A stretch of 33,104 nt of DNA from NCBI GenBank assembly GCA_964473825.1, contig CAYYQL010000029.1, forward strand, positions 1 through 33,104, in the 5' to 3' direction. The stretch is from an uncultured archaeon (GTDB lineage Archaea > Asgardarchaeota > Thorarchaeia > Thorarchaeales > Thorarchaeaceae). Made by a program: the position numbers and the translations under genes. The notes under the pieces were generated by a model, which was not told the origin of the DNA, did not search any database, and saw nothing but the letters and a program-made list of their open reading frames with translations. Shown here piece after piece: positions 1,108 to 32,526 of the stretch. The stretch's first letter is position 1. Each line of letters begins with the position of its first letter.

Positions 1108-1668
1108 CTATCGAGCGGCATCCACAACTAGGCGGTAGTAGTAGGTTCTACCTGCGGTCGGACTCTCTCGCTCAATCCTAACAACCTGACCAGGACGTGC
1201 GCCCAACACTCTCACGGCCGGATCATCCCTCAGAATTCGAGGCAACTGCGGCTTGTCTATGCCATAGTGCTCAAGAACTAAATCCACTTCTTCGGTGCTT
1301 GCCACAGTATGCTTCGGCACCAGTTGATGGTCGAAGAGGTCAAAAGATGCGTAGTTCCCTTCAACTAGTTCAACACGATTTGCGCGGGCATGCTTCTTTG
1401 CTGCTGGAGTGAATCGGCTACCTCCCACAATCATTCCCTGAAAAGCCTCGTACTCCTCCATGTCCCTCACAAGGTCCTTAACATAGGCAACACCGATGAC
1501 TTTCTGCTCTTTGAATATCCAGACCAGCATCCTGATAGTGTACTCGCCAAGCTGGCGATCAGGAATCATCTCGTAGCGGTCCTCGTATTCATTCAATTCC
1601 TCTACTCTGTAGCCGCGTAGATTCAGTAGTTCCCTTGTCTTTACTACATAACTTGGAAGTTCTGCCAT
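1108..1668 (-). CDS. rpoH: DNA-directed RNA polymerase subunit Rpo5/RpoH with an extra N-terminal RPB5-jaw / restriction-endonuclease-fold-like domain
   Basis: The C-terminal ~75 aa is unmistakable Rpb5_C (H.LVPKH, QLPRI..DDP, GA.PG.VV.I.R.SPTAG...YYRLVV). There is an N-terminal extension of ~105 aa, and an SD-like GAGGAG at 1677-1682 (minus strand). Confidence 0.92.
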   Translation of the reverse strand: MAELPSYVVKTRELLNLRGYRVEELNEYEDRYEMIPDRQLGEYTIRMLVWIFKEQKVIGVAYVKDLVRDMEEYEAFQGMIVGGSRFTPAAKKHARANRVELVEGNYASFDLFDHQLVPKHTVASTEEVDLVLEHYGIDKPQLPRILRDDPAVRVLGARPGQVVRIERESPTAGRTYYYRLVVDAAR

Positions 1669-1715
1669 GGCATTGACTCCTCAAAGAAGCTCATTGGTTC
1701 GCCCTTTAGTGAGCA

Positions 1716-1721
1716 TATAAA
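1716..1721 (-). promoter_or_regulatory. Putative TATA box (TTTATA) for the rpoH/RPB5-like gene
   Basis: TTTATA on the minus strand, ~48 nt upstream of the ATG at 1668. Confidence 0.5.
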
Positions 1722-1781: not shown

Positions 1782-1901
1782 CTACTCTTCATACAATCGC
1801 ATTGGCTGATTGCAGCATACTAAAGTGCCTGCACCTGACTTCTTCACGACAATGACCTGCTGGCAAATGTCGCACACATATGTTGCTCCTTCTTTGGCCA
1901 T
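1782..1901 (-). CDS. Desulforedoxin-like small Fe(Cys)4 protein (39 aa; not in ORF track)
   Basis: Manual translation MAKEGATYVCDICQQVIVVKKSGAGTLVCCNQPMRLYEE*. It matches the desulforedoxin/Dfx N-domain pattern Y.CxxC-x15-CC.QPM. An SD-like AGGAG lies upstream. Confidence 0.85.
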   Translation of the reverse strand: MAKEGATYVCDICQQVIVVKKSGAGTLVCCNQPMRLYEE

Positions 1902-7001: not shown

Positions 7002-8258
7002 CTAGAAAAAGTCTGTCAGTCTGCTCTGAGTGATAAAATGTTTGTAAGTCTCGCTCGCATCCAGATAACTATCTAATGAGTTCTGGAGCGTTGTTCCCAC
7101 AGCCATCAACGCTTCATCAAGGCCACTGAACTTACGTGGTTTCATCTCCAACCCTCTTCTTGCTATCTCCCTGAACCGCCATACACCGAGTGGCACCCAT
7201 TTTCTGGGGTCAATCTCCATGAAGACGATGACACCCGCCTGCCTTCGCATCTCAACTAGACGCTCTAGGACTGGGAGGCGAGTTGCATAGTAAGCGCCCG
7301 TGACATCCTTAGCATACTCTTTTCGGCCCTTCGCAAACTCATGGTCAGATATGACATGAGGCGCACGGCCACTCAGCCAACACTCTAAGGCTTCGAACTG
7401 CCAAGAGTTGGGCATCATCAAGATTGTGACTCGGTTTCCAAGAGCGTAATCGGTGAAAACCAGATAGTCATTGATCCATCTGAAGCGAAGAATCTCCTTG
7501 TGCAACTCCTTTGCGATGATATCATCCACTGCCGTGATGCTCCACTCTGTGGGAACAAGACGTCGTCGCTTCTTGGCCCCCAGCATTCCAATCGAGAAGA
7601 GTCTAGTGACCTGTTGCTGGTGGATGCCCTCTTCAAAGAGGGTCGTAACACCTGTAGTTGCATCTAGGTCGGTATCAGAGGTCACCTTGTCCACAGCCTT
7701 CGGGACTGCAGGATTGTCTTCCAGTCTGAAGCTCCGAAGGGGCGCCGATGGACCGATGGGAAGCGTTCGCCCCGAGAACACTCGCGTAAAACTCGGACGT
7801 TTGATTAGCGTCGCCTCTGACGAGGCAGGAGTCTCGGATAGTGCCATTGTCTGGGTCTCATGGAGAAGACGAGGGGGATCCATCGCTGCATCAACAGGAA
7901 TGGGCCGCTTTGTTCGGATTAGGCTGAATCGCAGAGCCAGAATCTCATCGAGGGTCTTTGTCAACCAGAGATCGGGTCGTTCCATAATCGCTGATTCTCC
8001 ACTCCTGACTGGTGGCACCAATGGACCAGCAAGAACCTTGGGATAACCATGACTGCCGACGAAGACGGAGGGTGGTGATGACCCAGTGAGGTTCATCCCT
8101 CTCACAGCGGATTCAATGTTTGCGAGCGCTTTGGCCCGCATAAGCAAGGGGCAGGGACTCACCCCGCATAGGGCGCGATGCCCCATACACCTAGAACAGA
8201 GTCGCTCATTGAATGAGGGGCCATGTCCGCCCTTCGGTTCTAGACGACTCTGAGCCAT
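7002..8258 (-). CDS. nreA: Nre family DNA repair protein with C-terminal PIP box
   Basis: N-terminal C..C.G...LCG..PCP, GSSPPSVFVG..GYPKV..GP, R.LVPT.WSITAVD, G.YYA.RL, PLGVW..RE and terminal PIP QSRLTDFF. Start moved to ATG 8258 because the longer ORF overlaps the divergent gene. Confidence 0.93.
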   Translation of the reverse strand: MAQSRLEPKGGHGPSFNERLCSRCMGHRALCGVSPCPLLMRAKALANIESAVRGMNLTGSSPPSVFVGSHGYPKVLAGPLVPPVRSGESAIMERPDLWLTKTLDEILALRFSLIRTKRPIPVDAAMDPPRLLHETQTMALSETPASSEATLIKRPSFTRVFSGRTLPIGPSAPLRSFRLEDNPAVPKAVDKVTSDTDLDATTGVTTLFEEGIHQQQVTRLFSIGMLGAKKRRRLVPTEWSITAVDDIIAKELHKEILRFRWINDYLVFTDYALGNRVTILMMPNSWQFEALECWLSGRAPHVISDHEFAKGRKEYAKDVTGAYYATRLPVLERLVEMRRQAGVIVFMEIDPRKWVPLGVWRFREIARRGLEMKPRKFSGLDEALMAVGTTLQNSLDSYLDASETYKHFITQSRLTDFF

Positions 8259-8360
8259 CACATATCTTTCTCCGCGTTCTCTCTGGGAACTAGCTGCAAT
8301 TCTCACCTTAAAGTAGTAATCCTCAAGGTATATCTTCGCATATGCATTCCGAACTCCTTG

Positions 8361-8660
8361 ATGAAGACACGCAGGGAGAGAATAATCGAGCTCTTGGAGA
8401 GAACCGAGCATCCCATGACTGTACAGGATCTTGCTGAATGGTTGGATATTAGGAATAGGTCCACGCTCTACGAAGACTTAGAACATGTGGCTAAATCGGT
8501 ACGAGCACAGGGGAAACAGCTGTTGATGCGTCCAGCCAGCTGTGGCAAATGCGGGTACATATTCAAGCATAGAAACACACCGAAGAAACCCACAAAATGC
8601 CCGGAGTGCCGCTCGGAGTGGATTCTACTCCCAGCCTATATCATCCGGGACAAAGAGTGA
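8361..8660 (+). CDS. Transcriptional regulator, HTH fused to Zn-ribbon (COG3357-like)
   Basis: TRRERII.LL...YEDL.HVAKS....G..L.M.PA.C.KCGY.F.....KP.KCP.C.SEWI pattern. Confidence 0.88.
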   Translation: MKTRRERIIELLERTEHPMTVQDLAEWLDIRNRSTLYEDLEHVAKSVRAQGKQLLMRPASCGKCGYIFKHRNTPKKPTKCPECRSEWILLPAYIIRDKE

Positions 8661-15795: not shown

Positions 15796-16062
15796 ATGAT
15801 ATTCAAATGCCGGAACTGTGGTAAGACCTCCAGCGACATTGACATGGTACTTGACGGTACCTGTGAATGCGGTTGTGCTCACTTCGAACTGACGTCAGAA
15901 AAACCCTTCATGACCGGAGAAGCAGTATCTCCGAAAGAAGCGCTACGCAGAGACCTTCACCTCTGGCTTGATTTGAATATCGACTCGATAGATGTCGAAA
16001 GCCTGCACAATATGAGAGTCCGATTAGAGTTCGATCAAGGGAATGCCGACCTGCAGGGCTAG
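15796..16062 (+). CDS. Zn-ribbon protein, OapC/ArvC (DUF2072)-like
   Basis: N-terminal C..CG......VL.G.C.CG...F resembles the OapC/COG3364 ribbon. Confidence 0.55.
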   Translation: MIFKCRNCGKTSSDIDMVLDGTCECGCAHFELTSEKPFMTGEAVSPKEALRRDLHLWLDLNIDSIDVESLHNMRVRLEFDQGNADLQG

Positions 16063-18701
16063 TCCTCTGAGGCCCTCTCCCTGGCCGCTTTCTCTATCTC
16101 CTCAAGAGGACGCTCAATCCTTGCTATTTGCCCCTCTATCTCCTCTCCCAGGTCGGTCTTACCTGCCACGGCCGCAATCCGCTGCACCGCTTTGAGATTA
16201 TGAATGACAGAATCCAGCCACGAATAGATATCTCCAGGATATGCCCACAGCTGGAACTTCTTCAACATCTCTTGGGACAGACCCGAGGGATTCAGACCCT
16301 CCTTTCTTCTCTTTATGAGCCATTTTCCAAGCTCGATCTTTCCGTGGTCACACTCAGGGAAGAGCTTACAACCGCAATTGAAGAATGCGTCAGTCCACTT
16401 CGAAAAGAGCTCGAAAACCCACTGAGGGAGCCGTGCAGCCCCTCCGGGTCTTTGGGATAAATCGCCCAAATCAAGAAACACGCCAGAAAAGAATCGAGTG
16501 GGCATGTGCGTCCTGAAAGCAGTGTTGATCTCACCTTGCAGGCGAGAGCTCAAGTACACGTTCTCGAAGGGTTCAAGTTTGACAGCAATGTCCAGTACAT
16601 CCATCTCAGTAGTGAGCTTCATAACCTCGAACCCCTCAGTGGGTGTCAAGAAGGACAGAGCCGTAGCTCGCCCCAGATCGGTCGGATACACACTGCCCCC
16701 CTTTACGCGGATCATTCGACGTTTCAGCAAGAACTTGAGTGCATCAGAGGGGGGTACCGAGGTTGAAAGCATCTTGAGGTAGACTCCTGCAACATCCTTA
16801 AGATTGACAAGGCCGGTGCCGCAGATTGTTGCGAGTATTTGTTCTGCTGAATGCTCTGTGTCTGCAAACGGCTCAACATCTTCGATGACACCATTCAGGA
16901 TATCTACCGCAATCTGATCTTCTGTTCGGTCCTGACCAGAGTGATATTTCCTGTCGGGCTCAACGAGGAGATAGACTCTGCCTCTGTCGTGCTTACCTAG
17001 TCTGCCTGCACGGCCCAGCATCTGTTCAAATTCTGCTGTCGAGAGCCAGTTCGCACCCATTGCGAGAGTCTCGAATACCACCTGCGATGCGGGCAGATCA
17101 ACCCCTGCTCCCAGCGCCGCGGTTGTCACGACACAGGCATACTTCTGTTTTGCATAACGCGATTCAACACTCCGACGTTGGTTGTATGATAATCCACCAT
17201 GGTATACAGTGGCCCATACCCCATGCTCTCGAAGCCAATCCGTTAGAGCGTGCGCTCTACGTCGAGAGTAGGTAAAAACAATTGATTGACCCTTGTTGCC
17301 GCTGCTACTCACATGGTGAAACGCGTTCAACACCAATCGTCGAATGAGATGTTTCTTCTCTTCCTCATTTCTAGCGAACACCAGATGACGCTCAAGTGGT
17401 ATCGGTCTTCCTGTGTAGTTCACGAGATCCATGTCGAGCTCTTCTGCGAGTTTGTCGGGAGAACCGACTGTTGCGGACAGGGCAATGACTTGGGCGTCAG
17501 GAGCATGAAACCTCATTCTGGATATTATCCCATCCAATTCAGGACCCCTTTCTGGTTCTGCGAGATTCTGTATCTCGTCAATGATTATCGTTCCTACTTC
17601 GCCGAGTTCTTCAGTACTGCCCGAGCGGAAGATGAGGTCGAGGGCCTCATAGGTTGCACAGACGAGATCTGCCCTTCTCAAATCAGTATCAACGATCGGA
17701 CGACCCTCTTTCCCCACATCCAAACGAGACATGCCTACTTTGATGCCGGTTCTTAGGCCAATCTCTCTGTATCTTCTTCGAAACTGCTCATACTTCTCAT
17801 TTGTCAGCGCGACCAGAGGAGACATGTATACCATCTTCTTTCCCTCTATCGCCTTTGGAACTCCAGCAATCTCGCCCAAGAGTGTCTTGCCGGAAGATGT
17901 GGAAGACACTATCAGAAGGTCTTTACCTTCAAGAAGCCCTGCTTTCACAGCCAGCTCTTGGACGGGAAGGAGGCCCTTCAAACCAGCCTTGCCAAGCAGA
18001 TGCTTAAGTTTGTCCGGAATGGCAAGATCATCGACATCCATAGTCGACTTGATGTCGCCGGCCTCGATGACATCGAAAAGGGTGAGATCGGGCTCGGTGG
18101 TGGGATCGAAACCAGGAGTCAACATCTCTATCAGTCGGGGCACAGATTTCACCTTGGAAACCTGGTGTTCTAATTGACGTATCATTCCCGGGGACATCTT
18201 TATCCCAAGAGACTTGAGCTCCGTCTTTAGGTCGGCCTGAGCACACGTTGAACACAAGACTTGGTTCTTCGACACCTTTACTGCATTCCTGCGAGTCAGT
18301 ACGGTAAGTCTATCTGCTCTGAGGCAGTTCATACAGAACGGAACAACTCGAGGACTGGGAGCCTGTATCCTCTCCAAGAATCTATCAAGGTCATCTACGA
18401 AGGGAGGTTTCTCCTGTCGAGGAATCAAGATGTGCTTCGAGTTCCTCAGCATATCATGGAACTCCTTCGGTTGATAGTAAACAGGCTTGTTGTACTTCAC
18501 AAACCAGGAACGGCGGATTTCGAGAAGTCCGTCCTGACGGTGGCCCCATTCGACCATTCCCGATAGCTTCGACCTCTGCCGGTCGCGCAAGACGTCAGAG
18601 AACACTTCTATACGAGTCGCCATCTCTTGGCGAGTCTGCCTTATCACCAGTGAGTATGGTTTGGCAAGTATTCTCTTGACATCTGCGTCAGCGACTTCCA
18701 A
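16059..18701 (-). CDS. Archaeal SF2 DEAD/DEAH-box helicase (COG1202 type, C-terminal DUF5814-like domain)
   Basis: LLPVQ Q-motif, S.TSSGKTL, DEIQ, LSAT, RPIPLERH, YHGGL, LGAGVDLPASQV, QMLGRAGR and C-terminal C.C...P.C.HG motifs. Confidence 0.93.
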   Translation of the reverse strand: MEVADADVKRILAKPYSLVIRQTRQEMATRIEVFSDVLRDRQRSKLSGMVEWGHRQDGLLEIRRSWFVKYNKPVYYQPKEFHDMLRNSKHILIPRQEKPPFVDDLDRFLERIQAPSPRVVPFCMNCLRADRLTVLTRRNAVKVSKNQVLCSTCAQADLKTELKSLGIKMSPGMIRQLEHQVSKVKSVPRLIEMLTPGFDPTTEPDLTLFDVIEAGDIKSTMDVDDLAIPDKLKHLLGKAGLKGLLPVQELAVKAGLLEGKDLLIVSSTSSGKTLLGEIAGVPKAIEGKKMVYMSPLVALTNEKYEQFRRRYREIGLRTGIKVGMSRLDVGKEGRPIVDTDLRRADLVCATYEALDLIFRSGSTEELGEVGTIIIDEIQNLAEPERGPELDGIISRMRFHAPDAQVIALSATVGSPDKLAEELDMDLVNYTGRPIPLERHLVFARNEEEKKHLIRRLVLNAFHHVSSSGNKGQSIVFTYSRRRAHALTDWLREHGVWATVYHGGLSYNQRRSVESRYAKQKYACVVTTAALGAGVDLPASQVVFETLAMGANWLSTAEFEQMLGRAGRLGKHDRGRVYLLVEPDRKYHSGQDRTEDQIAVDILNGVIEDVEPFADTEHSAEQILATICGTGLVNLKDVAGVYLKMLSTSVPPSDALKFLLKRRMIRVKGGSVYPTDLGRATALSFLTPTEGFEVMKLTTEMDVLDIAVKLEPFENVYLSSRLQGEINTAFRTHMPTRFFSGVFLDLGDLSQRPGGAARLPQWVFELFSKWTDAFFNCGCKLFPECDHGKIELGKWLIKRRKEGLNPSGLSQEMLKKFQLWAYPGDIYSWLDSVIHNLKAVQRIAAVAGKTDLGEEIEGQIARIERPLEEIEKAARERASED

Positions 18702-31038: not shown

Positions 31039-32526
31039 ATGGATTCTGCAGGCATAGATGTTCCTGAAGGCATGCTTCATAGACTGCACACGGCGGTACG
31101 TGCGGTACAGAACTCTGAGAAGGCTCTAGCATTCTCACATATCGATGCAGATGGAATTACGGCTCTAGCAATTGTGGTGCAACTTCTGCAACGTGAGAGC
31201 ATCCAAACTGAATGGGCCAATATCCACCAGTTGAACTCGGAATCTATCATCGAGGTCAGAGATTCAATCCTCAAAGGAAAACCAGACCTTGTCATATTCA
31301 GCGATTTTGGGACAGGCCAGATGGATTTAATCCGGGAACAAATCTCACCGCTGGAATCTGTAAGAAAGATAGTCGTGCTGGACCATCATCTCCCCAAAAA
31401 GAAATCTGAACAGAACACGTCCAATGGGAAGATTATCGAGGTCAATCCATGCAATCATGGCCTGAGCGGCAGTAAGGATGTTTCAGGTGCAGGAGTTGCA
31501 TTTCTATTGGCGCTGCACACCTCTCTGGAAAACACAGACCTATCAGAGCTGGCGATAGTTGGAGCCTCTGGAGACCTCCAGGATTTCTATGGGAAAGGCT
31601 TCAGGGGGATAAATGCGGACATTATCAGACTAGGCGAGGCGGCAGGATACGTTGCAGTGGATAAGGATCTTACATTCTTTGGGATTAACACCAGACCCCT
31701 CCCCTTCCTGCTTGAGTATGCTACTGAGCCCTATCTGCCTGGGATAACAGGAAACAGGGATGCATGCTATTCCTTCTTTGAGAACCTTAGAATTCAGATG
31801 AAGAATACAGACGACAGCTGGAGAACGTGGAGTGACCTTCAGGATAGTGAGAAGCAGCACGCGATTCAAGCCCTCTTCCACGAGATTCTACAAGCCTATG
31901 ACGACCCAAAGATTGCCAAGGGTATCATTGGAGATGTGATAACACTCACACGTAGGCCGCTTAAGAGTGAGATGAGGAACGTGAAAGAGTTCTCCACACT
32001 TCTGAATGCATGCGGGAGAAACAGAGAACCCGAGGTGGGTGTCCGCATTTGTCTTGGAGATGAAGATGCATATGTACGAGGAAGGACACTGCTTCAGACT
32101 CATAGATCCAATCTTGCCCAAGCTCTGCGAAGAGTAGAGCAACAGGGTTACGATGAGAGGAAGGGAATGTATCTGATAGACGACAACGAAACCCCTGATA
32201 CTATCATTGGCATCGTTATTGGCATGGCCCAAGGAGCTCGTCTTGTCCCTATAGACAAACCGGTGATTGGGGTAAGCAGGAACACCACAGGTGAAGGTCC
32301 GAAGCTGAAGATCTCTGGCAGAGCGAGAGGTTCCTTGATAAAGAGAGGACTCAATTTGAAAGAGGCCTTCGTTGAAGTAGCCGAGATTCTGAATGAACAA
32401 CATGGTAGAACAATAGCAGAAGCAGGAGGTCATCCAATGGCGGCCGGAGCATTTGTGCACAATAAGCATTTGAAAGAGTTCCTCGATATGACCTCGGATA
32501 GACTTGCTGAAATGCTCACCAAGTAG
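31039..32526 (+). CDS. DHH-family phosphoesterase, archaeal RecJ/Cdc45 (GAN)-like
   Basis: SHIDADG, SDFG, LDHH, VSGAG, GASGDLQ, EFSTLLNACGR, KISGR and GGHPMAAG motifs. Confidence 0.92.
   Translation: MDSAGIDVPEGMLHRLHTAVRAVQNSEKALAFSHIDADGITALAIVVQLLQRESIQTEWANIHQLNSESIIEVRDSILKGKPDLVIFSDFGTGQMDLIREQISPLESVRKIVVLDHHLPKKKSEQNTSNGKIIEVNPCNHGLSGSKDVSGAGVAFLLALHTSLENTDLSELAIVGASGDLQDFYGKGFRGINADIIRLGEAAGYVAVDKDLTFFGINTRPLPFLLEYATEPYLPGITGNRDACYSFFENLRIQMKNTDDSWRTWSDLQDSEKQHAIQALFHEILQAYDDPKIAKGIIGDVITLTRRPLKSEMRNVKEFSTLLNACGRNREPEVGVRICLGDEDAYVRGRTLLQTHRSNLAQALRRVEQQGYDERKGMYLIDDNETPDTIIGIVIGMAQGARLVPIDKPVIGVSRNTTGEGPKLKISGRARGSLIKRGLNLKEAFVEVAEILNEQHGRTIAEAGGHPMAAGAFVHNKHLKEFLDMTSDRLAEMLTK

Follow-up and report, generated by a model that had tools for sequence, protein, structure and literature searches.

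A gene encoding a long form of the RNA polymerase subunit Rpo5 (RpoH) was identified at positions 1108..1668 on the minus strand of the window (the whole stretch of DNA analyzed, 33,104 nucleotides in length). Its product is very probably a two-domain subunit with an inactivated Mrr-type N-terminal domain, homologous to the jaw module of eukaryotic Rpb5, which would be placed at the jaw of the polymerase. The ORF starts with ATG and runs without interruption through 186 codons to a stop at 1108-1110, and the initial annotation, which read it as a two-domain archaeal Rpo5 of 186 residues, agrees with the ORF list and its translation as well as with the matches obtained in Pfam and NCBIfam. The N-terminal domain (residues 1-107; 1348..1668, minus strand) is a dead Mrr-type PD-(D/E)XK fold and the counterpart of the Rpb5 jaw domain according to the AlphaFold2 model, hhalign, and the profile matches in the PDB, and the C-terminal assembly domain (Rpb5_C or RpoH, residues 108-186; 1111..1347, minus strand) is recognized by Pfam PF01191.

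Typical archaeal Rpo5 subunits consist of a single domain of about 80 residues, the gene of which heads the rpoH-rpoB-rpoA cluster (PMC10833476, PMC3906176). In comparison with these canonical subunits (4qiw_H, 8cro_H, and 2waq_H, approximately 75-85 residues), the long form carries 107 additional N-terminal residues in the form of a folded domain, and its gene is not located 5' of rpoB and rpoA. As in the case of canonical RpoH, it is the sole gene of its kind: a six-frame search of the 103 contigs of the genome to which the window belongs (95.7% complete) gave a single Rpb5_C match. rpoB was located on contig C2 and the long rpo5 on contig C29. Since there is only one Rpb5_C gene and rpoB lies on a separate contig, this is the only gene for subunit H and is located apart from the polymerase operon; it would encode the organism's only Rpo5/H subunit, in a two-domain form. 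Two motifs were noted on the minus strand by sequence inspection: a TATA-box-like TTTATAT (1715..1721, 47-53 nt 5' of the rpo5 ATG), which is a candidate promoter belonging to the gene itself, and a putative Shine-Dalgarno-like site, GAGGAG (1677..1682, 9-14 nt 5' of the ATG). The neighboring genes are unrelated to rpo5, and include those encoding a membrane protein, a desulforedoxin of 39 residues, and an EamA transporter, among others. The desulforedoxin gene, which immediately precedes rpo5 and has the same orientation (1782-1901, minus strand), is absent from the ORF list; its 39 codons match Desulfoferrod_N, a desulforedoxin-type Cys4 domain (E 1.1e-12), and are fewer than the usual ORF cut-offs, so that annotation easily overlooks it.

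The long ORF might have resulted from mis-assembly or from a mis-called fusion between a small Mrr-like gene and a normal short rpoH, all the more as some database entries cover only the C-terminal part (an "RpoH" of 91 residues is found among proteins of 189 residues, for example). An artefact of this kind is however extremely improbable, given the unbroken frame with its ATG and Shine-Dalgarno-like site, the recurrence of the same stop-free frame of 184-190 residues across hundreds of assemblies obtained independently, some of which are single-contig genomes, and the fact that both domains are conserved together. A total number of 387 relatives were found; the best 120 of these 387 are 61-70% identical to the query and 177-209 residues long (most of them 184-190) and, where they are named, they are RpoH proteins of Thorarchaeota or Lokiarchaeota MAGs. 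The NCBI "RpoH" entry of 91 residues shares a 90%-identity cluster (P0175) with proteins of 189-191 residues, which suggests that some annotations take an internal codon as the start of rpo5, thereby concealing the N-domain.

As regards the domain composition, residues 110-181 matched RNA_pol_Rpb5_C (PF01191; E 3.9e-28, 97.5 bits versus a cut-off of 23.5), and the C-terminal part matched the RpoH equivalog NF007129 of NCBIfam (99.8 bits versus a cut-off of 83). The modeled C-domain shows 56-57% identity with subunit H of Thermococcus and Pyrococcus, with a predicted rmsd of 1.2 A and a TM-score of 0.88. It is through the Rpb5_C/Rpo5 assembly domain that the subunit is attached to Rpo1, the largest one, and the C-terminal 79 residues would have this role here. 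Residues 12-105 matched Mrr_cat (PF04471; E 8.1e-9, 36.1 bits versus a cut-off of 21), and residues 11-96 matched NA-iREase1, a Pfam family of inactive restriction-endonuclease domains (E 3.7e-6). The order of the two domains is that of the eukaryotic-type Rpb5, i.e., an N-module followed by Rpb5_C. Of the two N-domain families proposed for checking in the initial annotation, Mrr_cat was matched by the 186-residue protein, but RNA_pol_Rpb5_N gave no Pfam match at E-values up to 10. In a set of 21 diverse long forms, Mrr_cat matched all 21 and RNA_pol_Rpb5_N matched four (best E 0.0027).

The relationship with RPB5 emerges when profiles are used. Residues 1-108 taken singly gave no match with the PDB by phmmer, and profiles built on the N-domain only, excluding the C-domain, were required; these were searched against 177,635 PDB sequences. 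With a mixed Asgard and Bathyarchaeia profile, the 11 best matches were all eukaryotic RPB5 chains (human 2.3e-7, Drosophila 7e-7, Arabidopsis 3.4e-6, yeast 3.3e-4, and S. pombe 1e-3), query positions 7-95 being aligned with residues 10-111 of Arabidopsis RPB5, and nuclease chains were absent from the matches at E-values up to 10. The Asgard-only profile matched human (1.4e-7), Arabidopsis (6.7e-6), and yeast (1.1e-3) RPB5, and the Bathyarchaeia-only profile matched the Drosophila (2.5e-7) and human (2.9e-6) proteins. In these three broad profiles, RPB5 chains accounted for the top 8 to 11 matches and no nuclease ranked above them; a Thor-only profile was weaker (E 0.015) and gave the same ranking. 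A control profile of true Mrr_cat nucleases, in contrast, matched LlaBIII (3.7e-5) and AF1548 (1.3e-4) and reached RPB5 only at 0.76, so that the N-domain proved to be closer to RPB5_N (1.4e-7 to 1e-3) than Mrr nucleases are, as opposed to clustering with the latter alone.

The alignments with human RPB5 drawn by eye in the initial annotation were reproduced by HMMER: phmmer aligned residues 46-181 with human residues 71-209 in a single stretch running through the domain junction, and the N-domain profiles matched the helix that terminates in RGY to human residues 10-35, and residues ~37-96 to 61-117. The resemblance to Mrr-like endonucleases noted on the same occasion was likewise recovered, both by Pfam and by hhalign, which aligned the N-domain with an Mrr_cat nuclease profile over 99 columns (probability 99.4, E 5e-22); in a search among 1.8 billion proteins, Mrr_cat nucleases ranked next after the long Rpo5 forms. 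The eukaryotic N-domains used with hhalign were those of kinetoplastid/euglenozoan RPB5 only, the kinetoplastid sequences being divergent; the match of the archaeal N-domain with them was weak (probability 20, E 1e-3) and was judged no better than that of Mrr (probability 7.6). Since the N-domain matches Mrr_cat and sits closer to RPB5_N than Mrr nucleases do, it forms a sequence bridge between the two: judging from its sequence, it is a member of the Mrr family which is specifically nearer to RPB5_N than real Mrr nucleases.

The fold was analyzed on AlphaFold2 models. The full-length model, built from an alignment of 33 homologues, had a pLDDT of 83.5, with a linker at residues ~107-117 falling below 50, and the N-domain modeled alone had a pLDDT of 92 and a pTM of 0.83. 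The predicted elements of the N-domain are, in order, a helix at residues 6-17, four or five strands, a helix at 60-72, a strand, a helix at 88-96, and a strand; in the model, this order is that of the PD-(D/E)XK core. The full-length model was aligned by Foldseek with eukaryotic RPB5 over ~200 columns (E 1.8e-13), the rmsd over both domains being ~7 A, which means that the domain orientation of RPB5 is either not reproduced or not fixed by the model. The superposition of the N-domain on the RPB5 jaw anticipated in the initial annotation was obtained: the modeled domain was aligned with residues 4-130 of Arabidopsis RPB5 (7eu0_E) over 102 residues (VIA-align Z 8.7, rmsd 3.4 A), and had a Z of 7.9 with RPB5 of ASFV (8q3b_E) and a Foldseek TM-score of 0.63 with 1dzf. 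Arabidopsis RPB5 came third in VIA-align, after AF1548 (1y88, Z 10.3) and NucS (2vld, Z 9.6), and in Foldseek EndoMS (4.8e-5) and MspJI (3.8e-4) ranked first, RPB5 being sixth and seventh (1.9e-3 to 2.6e-3). Since nucleases score as well as RPB5 or better, the fold alone cannot separate RPB5_N from nucleases; similar scores are to be expected because RPB5_N itself has been classed as PD-(D/E)XK (PMC3424549).

These similar fold rankings would also be compatible with two independent fusions, one of an Mrr-like domain to archaeal RpoH and the other of a PD-(D/E)XK domain to the Rpb5 of stem eukaryotes, in which case the architecture would be convergent and the archaeal domain might have a function unrelated to the jaw. 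Mrr-like domains are common and mobile, the match with Mrr_cat is far above that with RPB5_N both in hhalign and in Pfam, and the occurrence of two or three tandem domains before Rpb5_C in some Asgard archaea indicates that this N-terminus accepts domain accretion. Such a double origin nevertheless seems unlikely to us, since the Asgard-only and Bathyarchaeia-only profiles each found their best match in RPB5_N (E ~1e-7), above the solved Mrr nucleases, which the Mrr profile did not do, and since the position, the domain order, the collinear alignment across the junction, and the arginine of the RGY motif, which is essential in yeast (PMC1802627), are all common to the archaeal and eukaryotic proteins.

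The residues of the nuclease active site were compared in a joint alignment of 70 long Rpo5 sequences and seven Mrr nucleases. All seven nucleases have the catalytic residues D, D, Q, and K without exception. At these columns, the 186-residue protein carries E29, E33, W50, and F52, in line with the initial annotation, where no clear PD-(D/E)xK catalytic residues had been seen. The catalytic lysine occurs in none of the 70 long forms in this alignment, its position being occupied by a hydrophobic or aromatic residue (F, L, I, V, or Y) in 66 sequences and by A, T, or S in the remaining four; the glutamine is kept in one out of 70, this position being mainly Trp or Arg; and the Asp positions vary, an Asp being present at the second of them in some long forms, including 6 of the 20 from Bathyarchaeia. 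From these residues it is concluded that the nuclease active site of the N-domain is lost.

It could still be imagined that the N-domain is a working or conditional nuclease, or a sensor of modified DNA, tethered to the polymerase for the purposes of defence or repair: the Pfam cut-off for Mrr_cat is passed, the second catalytic Asp persists in the long forms just mentioned, and Mrr-family enzymes bind modified DNA. This role is very unlikely in view of the complete loss of the lysine and the near-complete loss of the glutamine, the Trp and Phe present here in their place, and the match with the inactive family NA-iREase1, as well as the fact that the gene is single-copy, universal within the family, and conserved like a core subunit. 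Mrr_cat domains (PF04471; AF1548 1y88 and LlaBIII 4xqk) and NA-iREase1 (PF22722) have the same fold as the N-domain of the long Rpo5 and match it over the full length of the profile, and Mrr_cat shares with it the landmarks GY, VGV, and FT..A....IEL; the catalytic D...D...Q-x-K of Mrr_cat is not kept, the Arg preceding GY shows no variation in the Rpo5 form alone, and the Rpo5-form domain is always fused to Rpb5_C.

This arginine (R18, in the RGY motif that closes helix 1) was found in all 70 long forms, as against two of the seven nucleases, and is aligned in the N-domain profiles with the human D-R-G-Y motif, in a sub-alignment that is not significant when taken alone. Helix alpha-1 of the yeast protein is essential, R26E in the invariant DRGY motif being a lethal substitution (PMC1802627). 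Helix 1 and the invariant R18, equivalent to the Arg of yeast DRGY, might be the critical element of the archaeal domain as well.

The nearest known system to the two-domain Rpo5 with an inactivated Mrr-type domain is eukaryotic Rpb5/RPABC1 (PF03871 plus PF01191; 1dzf, 5iy6_E, and 7eu0_E) along with its NCLDV homologues (ASFV 8q3b_E). In both the eukaryotic and the long archaeal proteins, an N-module with a PD-(D/E)XK fold is followed by the Rpb5_C assembly domain, and the nuclease residues are lost; both share the invariant Arg of the RGY motif closing helix 1, together with a conserved VG(V/I) turn and T-P-x-A-K segment, and the N-domain profiles match RPB5 residues ~10-118 with an E-value of about 1e-7. 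The N-domain is shorter in the long Rpo5 (~105 residues versus ~140 in eukaryotic Rpb5), and in the model it lacks the helical insert which separates helix 1 from the first strand in Rpb5, the predicted helix 6-17 running straight into the strands. In addition, unlike that of eukaryotic Rpb5, it is found as Mrr_cat by plain HMMs and fails PF03871, and the subunit serves one polymerase, whereas eukaryotic Rpb5 serves three.

The N-module of Rpb5 occupies the distal part of the lower jaw, and can be cross-linked to downstream DNA ~15 nt ahead of the bubble (PMC1802627). On the strength of homology, the 107 N-terminal residues, an Mrr-family fold without an active site, would be the archaeal homologue of this module: once incorporated into the polymerase, the domain would presumably be positioned at the lower jaw, where it may contact downstream DNA, dock factors, or both. 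Another archaeal add-on, the Rpo13 subunit of Sulfolobus, adjoins Rpo5 and touches double-stranded DNA near the jaw (summarized in PMC13257274), and because of this location it might be a functional analogue of the N-domain; the two are unrelated, Rpo13 being a small helical protein and a separate subunit present in some Thermoprotei only.

Rpo5 was present in 375 of the 400 species genomes of the Asgard phylum. Long forms occur in most of the 33 Asgard families sampled, whereas seven families (f4, f5, f6, f21, f22, f23, and f29, together comprising 160 genomes) carry short genes encoding only the C-domain; the remaining matched families, amounting to ~215 genomes including that of the window, carry long forms, these assignments being extrapolated from the match ranges of one or a few genomes per family and from the scores. 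One of the short-form families, f21, includes single-contig genomes of 4.4 and 6.0 Mb. The named long forms belong to Heimdallarchaeota, Jordarchaeia, Helarchaeota, and Asgardarchaeum, and two Baldrarchaeota genes are short. In a further sampling, 48 of the 80 loci fetched were long, and 41 of these 48 were labelled Bathyarchaeota or Bathyarchaeia, the other seven being labelled Jordarchaeia (three), Helarchaeota, Asgardarchaeum, "uncultured archaeon," and Krumholzibacteriaceae (one each). Among the fetched loci, the gene was short in other Bathyarchaeia, at three Hadarchaeales loci, and in Thermoprotei and Nitrososphaeria. Four other genomes, three from Bathyarchaeia and one from Jordarchaeales, likewise have the long form as their sole copy. 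The full-length form reported for this archaeon in the initial annotation is thus present, but it is peculiar neither to this archaeon nor to the Asgard archaea, since Bathyarchaeia commonly have it as well, in at least 41 species.

A maximum-likelihood tree of 74 long forms, drawn without a fixed root or order of events, has the Bathyarchaeia long forms together on the same side of one branch (support 86/88, 94% of the bootstrap trees); the Thor-like and Jord long forms each form a clade, and the long forms labelled "uncultured archaeon" and Krumholzibacteriaceae nest within the Bathyarchaeia clade. This pattern fits with an old and mainly vertical inheritance within each phylum, as opposed to recent exchange, as far as these sequences can tell. 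Two archaeal rpo5 contigs, L028 (DATKLC010000100.1) and L068 (JAJPJY010000079.1), are deposited under bacterial labels (Krumholzibacteriaceae and "bacterium"), which are likely to reflect mislabelled or contaminated bins.

Within the Asgard archaea, the long form is found in lineages labelled Thor, Heimdall, Hel, and Jord and is absent from other families, and it is present in Bathyarchaeia too; because of this patchy occurrence, it is a useful character in studies on the evolution of archaeal and eukaryotic polymerases. We regard it as fairly probable that the Rpb5 jaw module did not originate in eukaryotes, and that an Mrr-type nuclease domain was captured and inactivated in archaeal Rpo5, either before the split between Asgard archaea and Bathyarchaeia or with one ancient transfer, later disappeared from lineages such as the Loki-like, Odin-like, and Baldr ones, and passed by inheritance to eukaryotes, in which the helical insert was gained. 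If this is so, the long forms of archaea would represent extant intermediates, in terms of sequence, on the way from a defence nuclease to a core part of the polymerase. The idea put forward at the outset that the protein is an intermediate in which a dead nuclease became the RPB5 jaw is consequently upheld in terms of sequence similarity, and not in that of a demonstrated ancestor.

Rpb8 was later found in archaea as well. The long rpo5 family would parallel the case of Rpb8, leaving one fewer supposed eukaryotic innovation in transcription and dating the origin of the module to the archaea. The Rpb5 N-module has been described as eukaryotic (PMC1802627), and RPB5_N was listed under "Eukaryota" and classed as PD-(D/E)XK by its fold (PMC3424549). 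A 2026 survey on archaeal small subunits presents models of the Thor and Bathy Rpo5 in which the second domain is unmentioned (PMC13257274), and no description of a two-domain archaeal Rpo5 was found in the openly searchable full-text literature. The present data would provide the module with a concrete origin, an exapted and inactivated Mrr-type nuclease, which now has support at the sequence level and formerly had that of fold classification only (PMC3424549). The archaeal long forms could also serve as simpler, insert-free versions in which to probe the function of the jaw module.

Variations on the single-gene, two-domain pattern were also observed. Many genera of the family to which the window belongs (g12, g13, and g16) carry two or three long-form genes in tandem, approximately 100 bp apart (G364:C207:2660-3836, G360:C85:239-1434, and G371:C31:10606-11834, for example), whereas the genome of the window has one. 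In some Asgard lineages, Rpb5_C proteins reach ~440-560 residues, with two or three tandem domains resembling Mrr or the Rpo5 N-domain ahead of Rpb5_C (examples are G042:C157:3507-4406 and G055:C4:294099-294950, in families f9 and f10, and the proteins P0137, with 481 residues, and P0139, with 561). In other parts of the window, genes having no link to rpo5 encode an Nre protein (7002-8411, minus strand), a DEAD-box helicase with a C-terminal DUF5814 (16059-18701, minus strand), and a DHH/DHH_CID/DHHA1 protein of the GAN/Cdc45-RecJ type (31039-32526, plus strand).
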